The notes beneath the pieces were generated by a model. That model saw nothing but the letters and a program-made list of their open reading frames with translations, searched no databases and was not told the origin of the DNA. DNA of 64,000 nt. It comes from Capsulimonadaceae bacterium (GTDB lineage: Bacteria > Armatimonadota > Armatimonadia > Armatimonadales > Capsulimonadaceae). This document shows, piece after piece, positions 5,800-11,750 of the stretch; positions within the stretch are counted from its first letter, which is position 1, and the number at the start of each line of letters is the position of its first letter. The stretch is from the NCBI GenBank assembly GCA_965215505.1, contig OZ244065.1, forward strand, positions 5,376,001-5,440,000, given 5' to 3'. The position numbers and the translations under genes are program-made.

Positions 5800-6549
5800 T
5801 CAGGCTGCGGCGGTGGCCTTTCTGCGGCCCCTGGAAAGTGCCAGGCCGGCCAGGCCGAGTGCGCCGATCGCCAGCGCCAGCGACTGCGACGGCTCCGGGA
5901 CCGTACTCGGGGCCAGGGTCACTTTCCCGAAGAGGTCGGCGCTTCCCGAGGCCCCTTCAAAGACATGTAATTCGGTGTTGTTGTTGGCGAGGAACCCGTT
6001 GCTGGCGTTCACGTTCCCGAATCCGGTCAGGGCCAGCGTGTAGACCTTGCCGCCCAGGGTGAACGCCTGGTTGGGGAAGCTCGTCGCCAGCGTAATGTAG
6101 TCGGCGTTCTGCGCCTGTGTCCCCGTGTTCGGCGTTGCAGTGATGGGGACCTCGAATGTGAACGACTGCGTCCCGATCCCGGCCGGGGCGGTGAACACCA
6201 GCGTCGGCATGAGAGCGATCCCATCAATGTTGGTCCCGGTCGCGCTGCTGCCGTTGAAGTAGGACAGGCGGCCGACCACGAACGGGGTGTCGGTGAGGGT
6301 GTTGAACGAGCCGGTGCTAAAGCCCAGCTCGTTTTTCGCAGTCCCTGTCCCGGTATTATCCCCCCACTTGATGTCGTTCGTGCCGACGCCAGTGAGGAAG
6401 GGTGCAGAGCCTGCTTCCTGGACGGGGTTGATGAAGACGGCACTGCTCGTGCCTGTGACGGGGTCCGGTCCTGCCTGACTTGGCACCGCGCCGGCGAGAC
6501 CGCCGACGAGAAGTACCAGCGTGAGGCTGGCGGAGGAAGAGATGTGCAT
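5800..6549 (-). CDS. PEP-CTERM surface protein (choice-of-anchor K-like domain)
   Basis: Signal peptide; WG..., TPN...AD, YTL.LTGF; C-terminal VPEPS + TM helix + RGRRK. Confidence 0.82.
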   Translation of the reverse strand: MHISSSASLTLVLLVGGLAGAVPSQAGPDPVTGTSSAVFINPVQEAGSAPFLTGVGTNDIKWGDNTGTGTAKNELGFSTGSFNTLTDTPFVVGRLSYFNGSSATGTNIDGIALMPTLVFTAPAGIGTQSFTFEVPITATPNTGTQAQNADYITLATSFPNQAFTLGGKVYTLALTGFGNVNASNGFLANNNTELHVFEGASGSADLFGKVTLAPSTVPEPSQSLALAIGALGLAGLALSRGRRKATAAA

Positions 6550-6630
6550 GACGTGTACCTTTCTGCTTGAAAACGACGCGAGGTAAAACACGACACAGGG
6601 CAAGCAGCCGAGCGGCGCCTCCTTCTTCCA

Positions 6631-6647
6631 TGCACGACTCATGCCAA
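6631..6647 (-). promoter_or_regulatory. Putative sigma54 (-24/-12) promoter of the PEP-CTERM gene
   Basis: Minus strand reads TTGGCATGAGTCGTGCA, GG-N10-GC spacing, about 80 bp upstream of the start. Confidence 0.5.
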
Positions 6648-6695
6648 GCCCGGCATTCTTTACTGACACAAATACCTGTTCTTGGCACCTGTTTT

Positions 6696-7130
6696 TTAGA
6701 GCGCGTCGTTCTGGAAGAACTCGATGACCTCGCCGTCCGGCCCTTTGACGAAGGCTAGGCGCACCGGCACCGGGTATTCGCCTGCGATGGTTACGTCCTT
6801 CGGCTCGATCTGCGAGATTGCCCCCGCCGCCATGGCGCGGGCATAAGCACCGTCAACGTCCGCTGTCCGCAGGGCGAAATGCAGCAGCGCACCCTCGGGG
6901 GCTTCTTCGCCCGCCGCCCGCTTGCCCCCGGCGAAGACCTCCAAATAGTTGCCGTCGCCGGTGTCCAGCATCGCCGCCCGGCTGTCGCCTTCGCCCCAGC
7001 CGAAGGTGCGGACGAAGCCCAGGCCCTCCTGATAGAAGCGCAGGGTCGCCTCGAAATCGGACGCCCGCAGGGCGATGTGGTGGAAGCCGGGCGCGTTCTT
7101 AGGCTTTCCGGGGATATGATTATCTGACAT
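6696..7130 (-). CDS. VOC/glyoxalase family protein
   Basis: FHHIAL, LEVF, LLHFAL and GPDGEVIEFFQ metal-ligand pattern. Confidence 0.88.
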   Translation of the reverse strand: MSDNHIPGKPKNAPGFHHIALRASDFEATLRFYQEGLGFVRTFGWGEGDSRAAMLDTGDGNYLEVFAGGKRAAGEEAPEGALLHFALRTADVDGAYARAMAAGAISQIEPKDVTIAGEYPVPVRLAFVKGPDGEVIEFFQNDAL

Positions 7131-7200
7131 GTCTAGTCTCCTCCAGTCGTGGTTTGGCCGATTGTACCCGAGGCAGCGCTGTTCCTGTCTTCTCCCACCG

Positions 7201-7941
7201 GTGCGCGGCTCCTTGCGATACAAAGCCACTCGTGTTAACTCCAGCGCTTTTACGCTCCTCGAACTCCTCGTCATCCTAGGCGTCATCGCCGCCCTTGCCG
7301 CAGTCCTGCTGCCGGTCTTCTTTGCTTCGCGGGAGCGGGCGCGGCGGACGTCTTGCCTCTCGAACCTCCGTCAACTCGATACCGCGCTGTTCATGTACAC
7401 CCAGGATAATGACGGGTTCTTTCCAGTGGCCCCGGCGGATGGGGACGGGGACGGCCCCAACTGGATGGAGGCGGTCCATCCGCTTGTCAGCAGCCACGAC
7501 ATTTTCCGCTGCACTGACTGTCCTATTCCTGACCCCGTCGGCGGGCCGGATCTGACCGATGCTGGGTACGCCCTGAACTACGAGCTTTATGATGCCCGCC
7601 GATCCCCGGATGCTGGGCCGGGCACTCCGGCCTCCGACTTGATGGTATCCTTTCCAGCGGCGACGGTTTCCCTGTGTGAAGTCGGCTATCGCACGGGGCC
7701 GAGGAAAGACGACACGAGTTACAGCACGGCGACTAACGCGCCGGATACTGCCGACGACCTAAACTCCGGTGTGACCACTTTCGGCCCGCCAGGGGCGTTG
7801 CGTCATAATGGTGGAAGCAACTACGGCTTTGTGGATGGGCACGTCCGGTGGTATCGTCCCGACCAGGTAGCTGCTGCTAAAGTAACCATGAATGGGGTAC
7901 TCGTGGGAAACAACGGCTCCGCGCCGACGTTCGCCCGGTGA
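7201..7941 (+). CDS. Prepilin-type N-terminal cleavage / H-X9-DG (DUF1559-like) protein
   Basis: AFTLLELLVILGVIA, ARRTSCLSNLRQ and RHNGGSNYGFVDGHV; start uncertain (GTG 7201 vs ATG 7129). Confidence 0.82.
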   Translation: MRGSLRYKATRVNSSAFTLLELLVILGVIAALAAVLLPVFFASRERARRTSCLSNLRQLDTALFMYTQDNDGFFPVAPADGDGDGPNWMEAVHPLVSSHDIFRCTDCPIPDPVGGPDLTDAGYALNYELYDARRSPDAGPGTPASDLMVSFPAATVSLCEVGYRTGPRKDDTSYSTATNAPDTADDLNSGVTTFGPPGALRHNGGSNYGFVDGHVRWYRPDQVAAAKVTMNGVLVGNNGSAPTFAR

Positions 7942-7969
7942 TGGAGCGTCCGCGCGACGGAAACTGCTC

Positions 7970-7999
7970 TTGACATCCCCCGCCGCCCGCGTGTATAAT
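7970..7999 (+). promoter_or_regulatory. Sigma70 promoter of the T-box leader
   Basis: Perfect TTGACA (7970-7975), 18-bp spacer, TATAAT (7994-7999). Confidence 0.85.
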
Positions 8000-8173
8000 C
8001 AAGCCGAAGTATTCCAACAATCTTATTGAGACACAACGGCGATGACGGAGACGAGTACGCCGCGAACACTCTAGCAGAGCGATCTGCGCCAGAGAGCCGG
8101 GGGAGCTGAGAACCGGCAGGGGAAGCGCGGCGGAAAATGACTCCCGAGCCGGGTGGGGGAAAGGCGCGCTGGA

Positions 8174-8199
8174 AGGGCGAACATAAGGTTCGCCCCTAC
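8174..8199 (-). repeat. GTAG-type REP hairpin inside the T-box stem II
   Basis: AGGGCGAACATAAGGTTCGCCCCTAC, 1 mismatch from the copy at 51823-51848. Confidence 0.85.
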
Positions 8200-8340
8200 T
8201 GAGTGCCGAGTAGTTCGCTCCGGGGGGCTCCCGTGACAGGGCCAGGGTCGAAAGGGCGCGCTCATCCGCGCGCCACTTGCACCCGCCAAGGCGGACGCCG
8301 TGAGGCGTCCGTGAAACAAGGTGGTACCACGGGGGCATGA

Positions 8341-8376
8341 GCCTTTCGTCCTTGTGTGGGGGCGGACGGCTTTTTT
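8341..8376 (+). terminator. T-box intrinsic terminator
   Basis: GCC.TTCGTCCTT / GGGGCGGA.GGC stem followed by TTTTTT; shares sequence with the antiterminator 3' strand. Confidence 0.82.
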
Positions 8377-8408
8377 AGTGCCTTTTTGAATATCCGTGGG
8401 AGGGAACC

Positions 8409-9686
8409 ATGCCGAAAGTGTTAGGGCTGCGCTGCCGCGAGTGCGGCGAGCAGTACGACAAAGCGCCGATTCACGTCTGCGAGCTGTGCTTCGGGCCGCT
8501 CGAAGTGCAGTACGACTACGACTTCGGGCCGAAGATCACGCGCGAGCTGATTCAGAGCGGCCCGCTCTCCATGTGGCGCTACGCCGACCTGCTGCCGCTC
8601 GACGGCGAGCCGTGCGTCGGCAAGCAGGTCGGGTTCACGCCGCTCGTCCGGGCCGAGAACCTGGGCCGCGCCCTGGGGCTGAAAGAGGTATACGTCAAGA
8701 ACGACGCCGTCAGCCACCCGACGCTGTCGTTCAAAGACCGCGTGGTCGCCGTCGCCCTGTCCAAAGCCCGCGAGTTCGGCTTTCAGACCGTCGGCTGCGC
8801 CTCCACCGGCAACCTTGCCAACTCCGTCGCCGCCCACGCCGCCGAGGGCGGGTTTGAGGCCTACATCTTCATCCCGCACGACCTGGAGCAAGGCAAGGTC
8901 GTCGGGACCCTGATCTACGGCGCGAACGTCCTGTCCGTGCAGGGCAACTACGACGAAGTGAACCGCCTGTGTTCCGAAGTCGCCGGCAAGTACGGCTGGG
9001 GCCTCGCCAACGTCAACCTGCGCCCCTTCTACGGGGACGGCTCCAAAACATTCGGCTATGAGATCGCCGAGCAATTAGGCTGGAAGGCCCCGCAGCACAT
9101 CGTCTGCCCTTCGGCGGGCGGGTCGCTCGTGACCAAGATTTACAAGGCCCTGAACGAGTTCGCCAAGCTCGGCCTGATTGACGGCGTGCCCACCAAGATG
9201 TATGTCGCCCAGGCGACCGGCTGCAACCCGATCGCGACGATGGTGAAAGAACGGTCCGAGATCATGAAGCCGGTCCGGCCCAACACCATCGCCAAGAGCA
9301 TCGCCATCGGCAACCCCGCCGACGGCTACTATGCCGCCGAGGCCTGCCGCAAGTCGGGCGGCTGGGCGGAAGATGTGAGCGATGAAGAGGTCGTGGAGGG
9401 CATCAAGCTCCTGGCCGAGACCGAGGGTATCTTCACCGAAACGGCGGGTGGCGTGACCGTCGCGACCACGCGCAAGCTGATCCGGCAGGGCGTCATCCCC
9501 AGGGACGAGAGCGTGGTCATCTGCATCACCGGCAACGGCCTGAAGACGATGGACGCCGTGCTGGGCAAGATCGGCAAGACGATTCCCATCCAGCCCTCGC
9601 TGGCTTCTCTGGAAGAAGCACTGGCAAGCCGCGCCCATGCGCTTCCTACGAAAACCATTCAGACGTCGGAACTGGTGACTGCATAA
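8409..9686 (+). CDS. Threonine-synthase-family PLP enzyme, probably an O-phosphohomoserine-dependent homocysteine synthase acting with a sulfur carrier
   Basis: N-terminal Zn ribbon CREC/CELC, SFKDR (PLP Lys), ASTGN, TGNGLK; function inferred from the Met T-box and ThiS/MoaD + NIL neighbours. Confidence 0.85.
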   Translation: MPKVLGLRCRECGEQYDKAPIHVCELCFGPLEVQYDYDFGPKITRELIQSGPLSMWRYADLLPLDGEPCVGKQVGFTPLVRAENLGRALGLKEVYVKNDAVSHPTLSFKDRVVAVALSKAREFGFQTVGCASTGNLANSVAAHAAEGGFEAYIFIPHDLEQGKVVGTLIYGANVLSVQGNYDEVNRLCSEVAGKYGWGLANVNLRPFYGDGSKTFGYEIAEQLGWKAPQHIVCPSAGGSLVTKIYKALNEFAKLGLIDGVPTKMYVAQATGCNPIATMVKERSEIMKPVRPNTIAKSIAIGNPADGYYAAEACRKSGGWAEDVSDEEVVEGIKLLAETEGIFTETAGGVTVATTRKLIRQGVIPRDESVVICITGNGLKTMDAVLGKIGKTIPIQPSLASLEEALASRAHALPTKTIQTSELVTA

Positions 9687-9809
9687 GAACCCACCCCGCC
9701 GCTAGGGGCGGCGACCCTCCCCAAAGGGGAGGGCGAAGAGTTTGTGCCTCTGTCTCTTGCCCCTTCCGTTTCGGGAGGGGGAGCCGAACTTGTGAGGCGG
9801 GGTGGGTTC
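9687..9809. repeat. 123-bp palindromic intergenic element (REP/MITE-like)
   Basis: 14-bp perfect terminal inverted repeat GAACCCACCCCGCC (9687-9700) / GGCGGGGTGGGTTC (9796-9809); internal hairpins CCCTCCC..GGGAGGG and CCCCTTCC..GGAGGGG. Confidence 0.72.
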
Positions 9810-9835
9810 CGAAGACCCGCTAGAAACGACCAACC

Positions 9836-10606
9836 ATGAGAGCCTATCGCGAAAACCTTGCGCCCGACGAGCAGGCGCAGTTCGACCGGATGCGCGCCGA
9901 GGACGCCGAAGCGCCCCGTCAGTTCGTCAATTTTGCCTTCTACAAATTGGACCCGCTGTTCCGGCGCGAGCTGTCCGAGGCCGAGCGGGCCGACGCCGCC
10001 TGCGAGCTGGCTGAGGTCATCGAGGGCGCGCAGTCGAAGTTCCTGCTTTACCCCTACAGTACGCTCGGCATCCGGCCCGAGTGCGACTTCATGCTGTGGC
10101 GCATCTCGTACCGGATCGAGGACTTCGAGGAGATGACGACGGCCCTGCTGCGGACGCGCATGGGCCAGTACCTGTCCACGCCCTATTCGTACCTGGCGAT
10201 GACCAAGACCTCGATCTATGTGGACGAGCACGACTTCGAGGACCGCGAGGCGGGCCGCAAGCAGATCGTCATCGGCGGCGGCAAGTACCTGTTCGTCTAC
10301 CCGTTCATCAAGACCCGCGCCTGGTATCGGCTGACCGCCGACGAGCGGCGGCGGGCCATGCGCGAGCACATCACGGTCGGCCACGAGTACCCCAGCATCA
10401 AGCTGAACACGACCTACTCCTTCGGCCTGGACGACCAGGAGTTCGTCGTCGCCTTTGAAAGCGACTACCCGCAGGACTTCCTGGACCTCGTCCACAAGCT
10501 GCGCGAGAGCGAGGCCAGCGCCTACACCGAGCGGGACGTTCCCGTCTTCACCTGCTTGCAGCAGGACATGCAGACCATTCTGAAGCACGTCGGCGGCGTC
10601 AAATGA
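9836..10606 (+). CDS. Chlorite dismutase / coproheme decarboxylase (ChdC/HemQ) family heme protein
   Basis: YPFIK...WY.L...ER...M.EH...G and YSFGLDDQEFVVAFE motifs. Confidence 0.85.
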   Translation: MRAYRENLAPDEQAQFDRMRAEDAEAPRQFVNFAFYKLDPLFRRELSEAERADAACELAEVIEGAQSKFLLYPYSTLGIRPECDFMLWRISYRIEDFEEMTTALLRTRMGQYLSTPYSYLAMTKTSIYVDEHDFEDREAGRKQIVIGGGKYLFVYPFIKTRAWYRLTADERRRAMREHITVGHEYPSIKLNTTYSFGLDDQEFVVAFESDYPQDFLDLVHKLRESEASAYTERDVPVFTCLQQDMQTILKHVGGVK

Positions 10607-10631
10607 CCGACCGGCAGGAAGAGGAGACACA

Positions 10632-10910
10632 ATGGCAGTCAGCGTACTGATCCCGACGCCGTCCCGCAAATTCACGGCCGGCGAGGACACCGTCAGCGTC
10701 CAGGCGGCCACCGTCCGCGAGATGGTGGACGCGCTCGACTCGGCGCACCCCGGCCTGGGCAAGAGCCTCCGCAAACCCGACGGGTCCCTGAACCTGTTCA
10801 TCAACATCTACGTCAACGACGAGGACATCCGCTTCCTCCAGGGGCCGGACACGTCCCTGAAAGACGGCGACCAGGTCTCCATCGTGCCGGCCATCGCCGG
10901 GGGAAACTAA
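10632..10910 (+). CDS. ThiS/MoaD-family ubiquitin-like sulfur carrier (C-terminal GG-Asn)
   Basis: NIYVNDEDIRFL...LKDGDQVSIVPAIAGGN. Confidence 0.92.
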   Translation: MAVSVLIPTPSRKFTAGEDTVSVQAATVREMVDALDSAHPGLGKSLRKPDGSLNLFINIYVNDEDIRFLQGPDTSLKDGDQVSIVPAIAGGN

Positions 10911-10916
10911 ACACTT

Positions 10917-11156
10917 ATGGCCGTCGAACGCTTCAACCTGACCTTCAACAAGCTGATGCAGAGCCAGCCCATCGTCTACAACCTGGGCAAGAAGTACCGG
11001 CTGGTGACCGTGATCGAGAAGGCCAACGTCTCCGAGGAGGCCGGCTGGATGCAGGTCGCCTTCAACGGCGACGGCGACGAGATCCAGCGCGCCATTGCCG
11101 ACCTGAACACGCTGGGCGTCACCGTCACCCCCACCGAGATCGCCACCCTGAGCTGA
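10917..11156 (+). CDS. Stand-alone NIL-domain protein
   Basis: LTF.....QPIVY.L...Y.LVTVIEKANV....GWM.V...G....I..AI..L...GV.V fits the NIL (MetN C-terminal-like) pattern. Confidence 0.75.
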   Translation: MAVERFNLTFNKLMQSQPIVYNLGKKYRLVTVIEKANVSEEAGWMQVAFNGDGDEIQRAIADLNTLGVTVTPTEIATLS

Positions 11157-11184
11157 CCCCCACACCCGCACTGCATTTAAGACC

Positions 11185-11220
11185 ACGGTCCCGAGGCACC
11201 CGCCTCGGGGCTGTTCTTGT
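11185..11220 (+). terminator. Probable terminator of the T-box operon
   Basis: ACGGTCCCGAGGC-ACCC-GCCTCGGGGCTGT hairpin followed by a T-rich tail. Confidence 0.6.
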
Positions 11221-11259
11221 CTGTGTGTCCCCCCCCCTTTCGTCTACGCCAGCAAATAT

Positions 11260-11441
11260 TTAACACGGTATTAATACCGTGTTAATAACGTCTTAATGCT
11301 GCCTCCCCATAATCATGCCTACAGGCGAATAGAAACGCTGGCCGGTACGGCTTGGCAATCACTACGTCGTCCTATCGGCAAAAACATTTAACACAGGCTT
11401 AACGCAGCCTTAATACCGGCTTTATGTGGAGCCTCCATAAT
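11260..11441 (+). promoter_or_regulatory. Two tandem promoters, each with four 11-bp-periodic TTAA boxes (Pho-box-like) and a CATAAT -10
   Basis: TTAA at 11260/11271/11282/11293, CATAAT at 11308; TTAA/TTTA at 11388/11399/11410/11421, CATAAT at 11436. Confidence 0.78.
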
Positions 11442-11750
11442 CATTATGTCCAAACGCAGGCAGGGTTCAACAACGGGCAGCCGTCCTCAAGCGAGGACAC
11501 GCCGAACCATCCTGAACCCTGCACCTGCCCTACAATTTGACGTGTGCCGACGGCGGCGGCTTGTTCAGCGCCTTCGACCTACCCCACGCGGCCCAAAATC
11601 TTCTCTTTCTGCCTGCTGCCGCAGCACCGCCGCAGAAATCATTGCTGATACCCTTGATGAGCTAATGGACGGGGGCACTGTACCTCCAGTCACGCGCCGA
11701 TGCTGTACCGGCTGCAATCGCGCAGCCGTTCTGATCGTAGGAGGCTTGTC

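Follow-up and report, generated by a model that had tools for sequence, protein, structure and literature searches.

A Methionine-Specific T-Box Attenuator Probably Governing a MetM/MetO-Type Homocysteine-Synthesis Operon in a Capsulimonadaceae Bacterium

Introduction

Sulfur amino acids can be made by protein-thiocarboxylate routes, among them CysO/CysM/Mec of Mycobacterium tuberculosis and HcyS/HcyD/HcyF/MetY of Wolinella succinogenes. In the parts of PMC13759103 and PMC12172450 available to us, a thiocarboxylate route leads from O-phosphohomoserine to homocysteine by way of the carrier MetO, the hydrolase Mec, the sulfur ligase MoeZ and the synthase MetM, and both papers attribute the MetM/MetO pathway to Hasebe et al. 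2024 (Appl Environ Microbiol 90:e0124724; PMC11497804), working on Streptomyces albulus. The pathway is already published and included in GapMind, and Appendix 4 of the preprint of PMC13759103, as excerpted, states that MetM often carries a wrong threonine synthase annotation. T-boxes lie to more than 95% in Firmicutes, according to the portion of Wels et al. 2008 at hand. Here we describe a locus of a Capsulimonadaceae bacterium (GCA_965215505.1, contig OZ244065.1) that lies in a stretch of 64,000 nucleotides (nt), positions 5,376,001-5,440,000 of the forward strand, called the window below. In it a T-box leader precedes genes for a ThrC-like pyridoxal 5'-phosphate (PLP) enzyme, a Cld-family protein, a ThiS/MoaD-type sulfur carrier and a NIL-domain protein. 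An earlier sequence-only reading had pointed to the Streptomyces MetM/MetO pathway, and the pathway is real, being cited to Hasebe et al. 2024 in the available parts of PMC13759103, its preprint and PMC12172450. We consider it probable, at about 0.85, that the leader is a Met-specific T-box attenuator governing a homocysteine-synthesis operon of the MetM/MetO (thiocarboxylate) type.

The CysO/CysM and HcyS/MetY routes share with this system a ThiS-like thiocarboxylate donor, a PLP enzyme, a JAMM protease and an E1-type activator; they differ in that CysM uses O-phosphoserine and MetY O-acetylhomoserine, whereas here the enzyme is ThrC-like and would use O-phosphohomoserine. The S. albulus MetM/MetO system, as far as the excerpted sources describe it, has in common with our locus a ThrC-homologous PLP enzyme followed by a Gly-Gly ThiS-type carrier (directly there, with a Cld gene intervening here), a MoeZ-type E1 and a Mec-type JAMM protein encoded elsewhere in the genome, available O-phosphohomoserine, methionine-linked RNA control and an enzyme annotated as threonine synthase. 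In contrast, control is exerted there by an S-adenosylmethionine (SAM) riboswitch and here, in Armatimonadota, by a tRNA-Met T-box; an extra NIL gene (widespread outside actinobacteria) and a ChdC-like gene (in Capsulimonadaceae-type loci only) are present here; O-phosphohomoserine would come from HomK, not from a GHMP-type ThrB; and the enzyme is about 49% identical to the actinobacterial proxy, that of Nonomuraea. With the Met T-boxes of Firmicutes the leader shares the Stem I motifs (GA/AGUA, AG bulge, distal loop), the specifier loop GAA-N-AUG-purine, the competition between a UGGN antiterminator and a terminator, and an amino-acid biosynthesis operon downstream, but it stands in Armatimonadota, has long G+C-rich insertions and belongs to a set of leaders of which half mismatch the tRNA-Met discriminator. 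Finally, a homocysteine route built on COG1900 plus a NIL/ferredoxin protein occurs in methanogens and Desulfovibrio and figures as L-aspartate semialdehyde S-transferase in GapMind 2026 (PMC13759103, in the part seen). Like our locus, it has a NIL domain alongside a non-canonical homocysteine-forming enzyme, but the NIL protein here has neither a ferredoxin domain nor a COG1900 partner, and substrate and enzyme family are different.

Results and Discussion

A Met-Specific T-Box Leader

The genome is a single contig of 6.18 Mb, estimated to be 96% complete. The features of the locus, in window coordinates, are the following.

7970..7999, + strand: sigma-70-type promoter, TTGACA-18 nt-TATAAT, 12/12 consensus matches
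8033..8356, + strand: T-box leader, RF00230 covariance-model match, with Stem I at about 8039-8150, then Stem II/III-like insertions and the antiterminator
8133..8140, + strand: specifier loop GAAAAUGA, with AUG (Met) at 8137-8139 and the conserved purine at 8140
8320..8328, + strand: T-box sequence GGUGGUACC, carrying the UGGU bulge at 8322-8325
8339..8376, + strand: intrinsic terminator of the leader, hairpin then six U, its 5' strand overlapping the 3' strand of the antiterminator
8409..9686, + strand: ThrC-like PLP enzyme, MetM-like, 425 amino acids (aa), PALP 223 bits, TIGR00260 289.8 bits
9836..10606, + strand: Cld-family, coproheme-decarboxylase-like protein, 256 aa, PF06778 193.7 bits
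10632..10910, + strand: ThiS/MoaD-type sulfur carrier, MetO-like, 92 aa, PF02597 61 bits, C-terminus ...AIAGGN
10917..11156, + strand: stand-alone NIL-domain protein, 79 aa, PF09383 39.5 bits against a Pfam gathering score of 24
11185..11214, + strand: terminator-like hairpin at the operon end, 13-bp stem and weak T tail

The RF00230 match of the leader scored 55.1 bits, with E-values of 2.4e-11 in a 551-base search and 6.4e-11 in the whole genome, and the model aligned to it over its full length (model positions 1-219). The earlier call of a complete T-box is thereby borne out, though below the gathering score. Three long G+C-rich insertions in the Infernal alignment account in part for the shortfall, and the genome's remaining two T-boxes also stay below threshold, at 77.7 and 49.1 bits. 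Because the score lies below 93, an Rfam scan of the whole window at gathering level returned nothing, and the leader was detected only at an E-value setting. It contains a Stem I with GA/AGUA motif, AG bulge and distal loop, a specifier codon followed by a purine, and a UGGN bulge in an antiterminator that is mutually exclusive with the downstream intrinsic terminator. In the Infernal alignment the specifier loop (8133-8140) reads G-AAA-AUG-A, the AUG falling at 8137-8139 and the final A at 8140, with high posterior probability throughout. No ACN codon occupies the specifier position in this register, in agreement with the sequence-only reading. The terminator was found as a minimum-free-energy hairpin at 8339-8372 with six T at 8371-8376, and a terminator-like site call covers 8345-8366 and the T-run. 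Bases 8345-8353, which Infernal pairs into the antiterminator, are the 5' strand of the terminator hairpin. The layout is that of classical transcription attenuation.

The Met specifier is conserved in related leaders. Eighty loci encoding relatives of the enzyme were collected, 65 of Armatimonadota type (L024-L088) and 15 from other phyla. The T-box motif GGUGG-N-A-Y-C is found upstream in 62 of the 65; L075 has no upstream sequence at all, and L066 and L087 have upstream sequence in which neither the motif nor any Rfam family at E 0.001 was detected. Two leaders (L062, L063) end at a contig edge before Stem I, leaving 60 readable ones, and GAA-(N)-AUG stands in the expected place in every one of them, so that AUG is invariant in the 61 aligned leaders (60 relatives and the window). 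The base before it varies (A, C or absent); the base after it is A or G in 59/60 and U in L088. Leaders had been extracted with AUG, and since a codon-agnostic pattern search at the specifier position gave only AUG-compatible loops, this extraction did not select for the result. UGG or GGC as the specifier was ruled out: their bases are changed in L055, L056, L065, L071 and L088, and AUG is kept.

Projected on the alignment of 61 leaders, the Infernal structure yields 21 Stem I pairs. In these, 91.9% of cells are paired and 15 of the 21 pairs are altered on both sides; the score for covariation, 0.385, compares with 0.164 in shuffles and is reached by 0/500 of them, and sliding the 3' partner by 1-3 columns lowers the paired cells to 28-52%. 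All four base pairs of the helix closing the specifier loop are kept in 100% of cells, and each of them shows compensatory changes (GGAG/CUCC, GAAG/CUUC, AAGG/CCUU and others), which fixes the specifier register. All core T-box elements are invariant in the 61 leaders.

Six Armatimonadota genomes hold exactly three T-boxes each, and the specifiers, where readable, are Leu (CUC), Val (GUC) and Met (AUG). In this genome the Leu T-box precedes an acetolactate-synthase-type gene and the Val T-box a class I aminoacyl-tRNA synthetase gene; the two lie at G000:C1:1902198-1902490 (- strand) and G000:C1:3286676-3286910 (+ strand), here named in coordinate order, and those of the relatives are L172-L186. 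A literature search returned no paper joining "T-box riboswitch" with Armatimonadetes or Armatimonadota. T-box control of the pathway in Armatimonadota is thus beyond the literature searched, the primary MetM paper and the GapMind 2026 supplements being outside that search.

The tRNA Partner

The elongator-type tRNA-Met of this genome carries A73, each of its three tRNA-Thr U73 and its initiator-type tRNA C73, so the UGGU bulge fits elongator tRNA-Met and not tRNA-Thr. A UGGU leader is paired with an A73 tRNA-Met in G004 as well. Across the related Met leaders (n = 62), the variable base gives UGGU in 32 and UGGA in 30. The earlier statement that the bulge pairs with an A discriminator therefore stands for this genome but does not extend to the clade. 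A covariation of the discriminator with the bulge (A73 with UGGU, U73 with UGGA) was tested and rejected, as three UGGA genomes (G002, G003, G005) keep A73. UGGA is confined to the Met leader in G001, G002 and G005, whose Leu and Val leaders have UGGU; the tRNA search of G001 did not recover its elongator tRNA-Met. The mismatch in Met leaders may be a deliberate detuning of the acceptor contact with the tRNA. This UGGA variant specific to Met leaders is beyond the literature searched.

The UGGA leaders are those of L045-L047, L051, L052, L054-L056, L058-L065, L067-L072, L077-L081, L085, L086 and L088. The initiator-type tRNA of the clade, with its ends as called by ARAGORN, has C1 opposite U72 together with C73 (G000:C1:1145180-1145253, L105; L114, L127, L141), where we had assumed A73.

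The sub-threshold score (55.1 bits, gathering score 93) and the A-A mismatch of UGGA leaders with A73 of tRNA-Met might suggest that the leader is a decayed T-box or responds to another tRNA, and hence does not work as a Met sensor. We regard this as very remote: the core elements do not vary among 61 leaders, the helices covary, promoter and terminator are intact, AUG is the sole conserved triplet of the loop, and the same genomes retain two further T-boxes with orthodox targets.

The ThrC-Like Enzyme Belongs to a Carrier-Linked Clade

By annotation the enzyme is a threonine synthase. It exceeds the thrC cut-off of TIGR00260 (289.8 versus 167.1 bits), every named match among its best 120 homologs, all of which are closely related to it, bears that name, and its best structural relatives are solved threonine synthases, the alignment starting only at about residue 55. 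The extra N-terminal segment carries C9, C12, C24 and C27, which, like the PLP motif SFKDR with lysine K109, are invariant in 36 sequences. The closest relatives, at 82-95% identity, come from Armatimonadota, many of them Capsulimonadaceae. A maximum-likelihood tree was built from 36 sequences after nine rows had been dropped (eight duplicates of the same genes and one fragment). In it a 100/100 branch sets 23 carrier-linked sequences apart, and seven housekeeping ThrC proteins form a separate 100/99 clade.

A separate thrC (311 bits) is present in this genome, about 1 kb from the homoserine dehydrogenase gene (hom) and about 2 kb from that of HomK, and 8/8 other genomes searched that have a carrier-linked gene also have a distinct thrC above 300 bits. 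The comparison with true ThrC and the search for a second thrC that had been called for at the outset thus gave a clade distinct at 100/100, with the MetM side represented by the Nonomuraea proxy, and the gene near hom and HomK.

A third ThrC-like paralog of this genome, G000:C1:6149553-6150539 (- strand, L003), scores 157.8 bits, below the thrC cut-off, and groups in the tree with a Rokubacteria paralog, apart from both ThrC and the carrier-linked clade.

Regulation outside Armatimonadota points to methionine as well. A SAM-I riboswitch stands ahead of the gene or operon in 5 of the 15 loci from other phyla (L093, L095, L100, L102, L103), at 77.7-84.6 bits versus a gathering score of 44.4. 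In Nonomuraea, found by tblastn against plasmids and used as the actinobacterial proxy in the tree, a SAM riboswitch (68.7 bits) is followed by an enzyme 49% identical to ours and then by a 91-aa carrier ending in ...AVAGG. This order of riboswitch, enzyme and carrier is that of S. albulus metM in the accessible text of PMC12172450. The Nonomuraea enzyme and the SAM-riboswitch loci fall inside the 100/100 carrier-linked clade. With a Met T-box here and SAM riboswitches elsewhere, one gene family is controlled by two kinds of methionine-branch RNA sensor that are unrelated to each other.

These data bear on whether the enzyme could instead be a second true threonine synthase, or a synthase/deaminase like Microcystis ThrC, with the carrier merely adjacent. 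Its score above the TIGR00260 cut-off, its solved relatives and the threonine-related activities of a cyanobacterial MetM homolog (PMC12172450, in the part available) speak in favor of such a function. However, the leader specifies Met and not Thr, orthologs lie behind SAM riboswitches in 5/15 other-phyla loci and in Nonomuraea, a separate thrC accompanies hom and HomK and is split from the enzyme at 100/100, the carrier is adjacent in 75/81 loci, and without this enzyme no homocysteine route is detected in the genome. We judge a second threonine synthase highly unlikely.

Homocysteine Synthesis in the Genome

Profile searches of the genome gave no match to MetX or to HTS/MetA, and the best match to Cys_Met_Meta_PP (metB/C/Y/Z type) was partial at 40.7 bits, so that no true Cys/Met-PLP enzyme was found. 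The check for metA, metX, metY and metB that the sequence-only reading had proposed therefore came out as predicted. MetH is present. Among homoserine kinases, HomK (TIGR02535) scores 498.7 bits, above its cut-off of 446.3, and its gene lies near thrC; the best genome matches to GHMP-type ThrB and to alternative ThrB reach 29 and 41.8 bits. The genome has a single ThiF-family gene, a ThiS-ThiF-rhodanese fusion of MoeZ type, beside its single Prok-JAB (JAMM) gene. Since enzyme, carrier, MoeZ-type E1, JAMM protein and HomK were all found, the four published components have counterparts and the substrate is available.

The activation genes form a cluster at about 4.79 Mb (G000:C1:4786000-4797000, L106, minus strand) that consists of a CysM/K-like PALP gene, a 127-aa open reading frame (ORF) without family, the JAMM protease and a two-domain rhodanese; the ThiS-ThiF-rhodanese E1, of 492 aa, bears a ThiS domain of its own at the N-terminus.

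ThiS-type carriers serve several pathways, and CysK/M-like PALP genes and TusA occur in the clusters of some other phyla (L093, L101). The operon could accordingly make another sulfur compound, such as cysteine by a CysO/CysM-like reaction or a thio-cofactor, with Met control being indirect. This seems unlikely to us, as a CysM/K-like PALP gene is already present in the genome at about 4.79 Mb, next to the JAMM and MoeZ-type genes, the enzyme resembles ThrC and not CysM and clusters in the tree with an actinobacterial metM-like locus, Met T-box and SAM-riboswitch control both indicate the methionine branch, and a homocysteine source was otherwise not detected in the genome. The proposal that the enzyme would make homocysteine rather than threonine is supported by its clade, its regulation and this genome inventory.

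Directly upstream of metK, a SAM-I riboswitch match was seen at 43.9 bits versus the gathering score of 44.4 (G000:C1:3579016-3579125, + strand, L187). With this near-threshold riboswitch, it appears that SAM is sensed for metK and tRNA-Met for homocysteine synthesis.

The Sulfur Carrier

Neighborhoods were counted over 81 loci, namely the 80 loci and Nonomuraea. A ThiS-like ORF adjoins the enzyme gene in 75 of them; five of the six misses are contig ends and the sixth is L093. All 75 neighboring carriers have the motif (A/S)(I/V)AGG, and the carrier of the window is a ThiS-family match with a C-terminal Gly-Gly. In 34 of the 75 the protein stops at GG, 28 have one extra residue and the rest have 2-13, with the exception of L094. 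In this 171-aa ORF (L094:3477-3992) a short linker connects the carrier (...IPAIAGG) with a NIL domain, which makes the GG internal, and the protein runs 80 residues past it; a rhodanese-ThiF gene comes next. The single cap residue varies freely in the Capsulimonadaceae-type carriers examined (N, F, V, C, I, K, R, L, A), and this variability would be in keeping with its removal by the JAMM protease.

A NIL Companion Protein

Iterated profile searches of all ORFs placed a NIL ORF in 66/81 loci from at least seven phyla, and the association of NIL with the enzyme-carrier pair is solid. In Capsulimonadaceae-type loci the NIL gene follows the carrier, in the window 6 bases past the carrier stop. 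In Chthonomonadaceae the partner is of about 175 aa with two NIL stretches (for example L055:7980-8504). NIL genes end clusters with a ThiF-type E1 in Omnitrophota (L089) and Nitrospirota (L101, which also has a PALP-TusA protein), and in L102 the NIL gene lies between SAM riboswitch and enzyme. No NIL ORF was found in the 9.2-kb stretch of Nonomuraea. Downstream of the NIL gene of an Omnitrophota cluster a thiamine pyrophosphate riboswitch was observed (L091:8593-8708, 60.3 bits).

The Atlas neighbors of the NIL protein are generic NIL-only clusters of 78-79 aa, and a fusion search found no longer proteins with this NIL type, which is weak evidence. A complex prediction of enzyme, carrier and NIL protein, run without controls, scored 0.00 and speaks neither for nor against binding. 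A literature search for NIL with sulfur carrier and threonine synthase returned only the COG1900 plus NIL/ferredoxin papers. The NIL companion and its carrier fusion are beyond the literature searched, and the primary MetM paper or the GapMind 2026 supplements may already note the NIL neighbor or the wider distribution.

Because NIL travels with the pair, occurs in a SAM-riboswitch locus and in E1 clusters, is found in tandem duplication and is fused to a carrier, we tentatively propose, at somewhat less than even odds, that it may be an unrecognised third component of MetM/MetO systems. It would most likely be a Met- or homocysteine-binding regulatory subunit or adaptor acting on the carrier or the enzyme, and small ACT-type subunits of other amino-acid enzymes serve as a model for such a role. 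The protein may in that case sense Met.

The Cld-Family Gene

A Cld gene is beside the enzyme gene in 27 of the 29 loci with an enzyme identity of at least 82% (the other two reach a contig edge) and in 0/51 remaining loci. It is the sole Cld-family gene of this genome. The best solved relatives of its product are actinobacterial coproheme decarboxylases (92 bits), but the scores do not reach the ChdC equivalog level (NF042928 HemQ_actino, 124.5 versus 235 bits; NF008913, 77 versus 253). Y155 (in VYPF) and H178 align to identical residues of the coproheme decarboxylase 9mhq; they are the presumed catalytic Tyr and proximal His. As to coproheme supply, the genome gave no match to ferrochelatase PF00762, none to HemF and none of AhbD/NirJ2 type (best 51.5 versus 500 bits). 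A fused AhbA/B-like protein, weak and below the equivalog cut-offs (L190:8019-9179, - strand), hints at a siroheme route. A "SAM-sparing" role, in which a ChdC-like enzyme would replace radical-SAM AhbD under Met shortage, was dropped as no AhbD/NirJ2-type gene was found.

Cld orthologs with 48-55% identity were found elsewhere in three Chthonomonadaceae genomes and one Methylomirabilis genome with unrelated neighbors, and their surroundings show no conserved pattern in these other genomes. In the Methylomirabilis genome (G008) the 55%-identical Cld gene lies 3.7 kb from a divergent ThrC-like paralog (G008:C35:1319-2284 and 5981-6667; L161, L168) and is followed by a futalosine-type menaquinone gene. 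The interval from the enzyme gene to the Cld gene of the window contained no promoter-like site on the + strand. The Cld gene has the look of a housekeeping gene that entered the operon within a single lineage; this Cld/ChdC-like gene is an insert confined to that lineage and does not belong to the MetM/MetO pathway.

Operon Borders and RNA-Type Runs

All four downstream genes named by the sequence-only reading (ThrC-family PLP enzyme, Cld/ChdC-family protein, ThiS/MoaD carrier and NIL domain) were recovered by profile matches. Two promoter-like sites were called in 7900-11500, versus a mean of 0.6 in shuffles, and the one at 7970-7999 is the only one on the + strand. Upstream of this promoter lies the gene (7129-7941, + strand) for a DUF1559 protein whose N-terminus bears a prepilin-type methylation motif.

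RNA-type public runs contain just 6-7% of the sequence words that were sampled. Contigs from those runs belong to relatives (mostly 85-95% alike) and span the leader and all four genes. One contig covers 8034-9056, across the terminator into the enzyme gene, and several contigs connect the enzyme and Cld genes over a replaced spacer. Such contigs are blind to transcript ends, strand and level, and may derive from DNA in the libraries; they give at most a weak hint that the operon is co-transcribed in relatives.

Proposed Mechanism

Leader, specifier register, gene content, clade membership and pathway inventory were all computed; from here on we infer how the enzyme works chemically, how the leader responds to tRNA and what the NIL and Cld-family proteins do. 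Transcription would start from the promoter at 7970-7999. Uncharged elongator tRNA-Met (anticodon CAU, A73) would pair through its anticodon with the AUG specifier of Stem I and through its free ACCA end with the UGGU bulge, stabilising the antiterminator and letting RNA polymerase enter the operon. Charged tRNA-Met would be unable to do so, and the terminator at 8339-8376 would form. HomK, encoded at the hom-thrC locus, would supply O-phosphohomoserine. The single JAMM (Mec-type) protease presumably removes the residue after the carrier Gly-Gly, and the single ThiS-ThiF-rhodanese (MoeZ-type) enzyme presumably loads sulfur on the carrier. The ThrC-like enzyme would act on O-phosphohomoserine with the C-terminal thiocarboxylate of the carrier as sulfur nucleophile, yielding homocysteine, which MetH would methylate to methionine.

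Several points weigh against this interpretation. With 55.1 bits the leader fails membership at the Rfam gathering score of 93. The UGGA genomes G002, G003 and G005 retain A73 on elongator tRNA-Met, and a pattern search of the UGGA genomes G001, G002, G003 and G005 found no CAU tRNA with U73; as UGGA leaders meet A73, half of the clade departs from the rule for pairing with the acceptor end. Membership of the enzyme in the MetM group depends on the Nonomuraea proxy and on gene context, the comparison having been made without S. albulus MetM (UniProt A0A059WBP2) and MetO (A0A059W7F4). The absences in the pathway come from profile searches of a genome estimated at 96% completeness. Finally, a heme-type gene within a Met-controlled operon lacks an explanation.

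Conclusions

T-box and SAM riboswitches on one family indicate that a widespread "threonine synthase" subfamily belongs to methionine synthesis. This extends the Streptomyces pathway of 2024 to Armatimonadota, Omnitrophota, Methylomirabilota, Nitrospirota, Planctomycetota and others, and would correct a systematic misannotation as threonine synthase and explain homocysteine synthesis in genomes without metA/X/B/Y/Z. The NIL companion and the UGGA leaders raise testable questions on the regulation of the pathway and on the recognition of tRNA by T-boxes. Armatimonadota join the phyla with a small conserved set of T-boxes, here for Leu, Val and Met.

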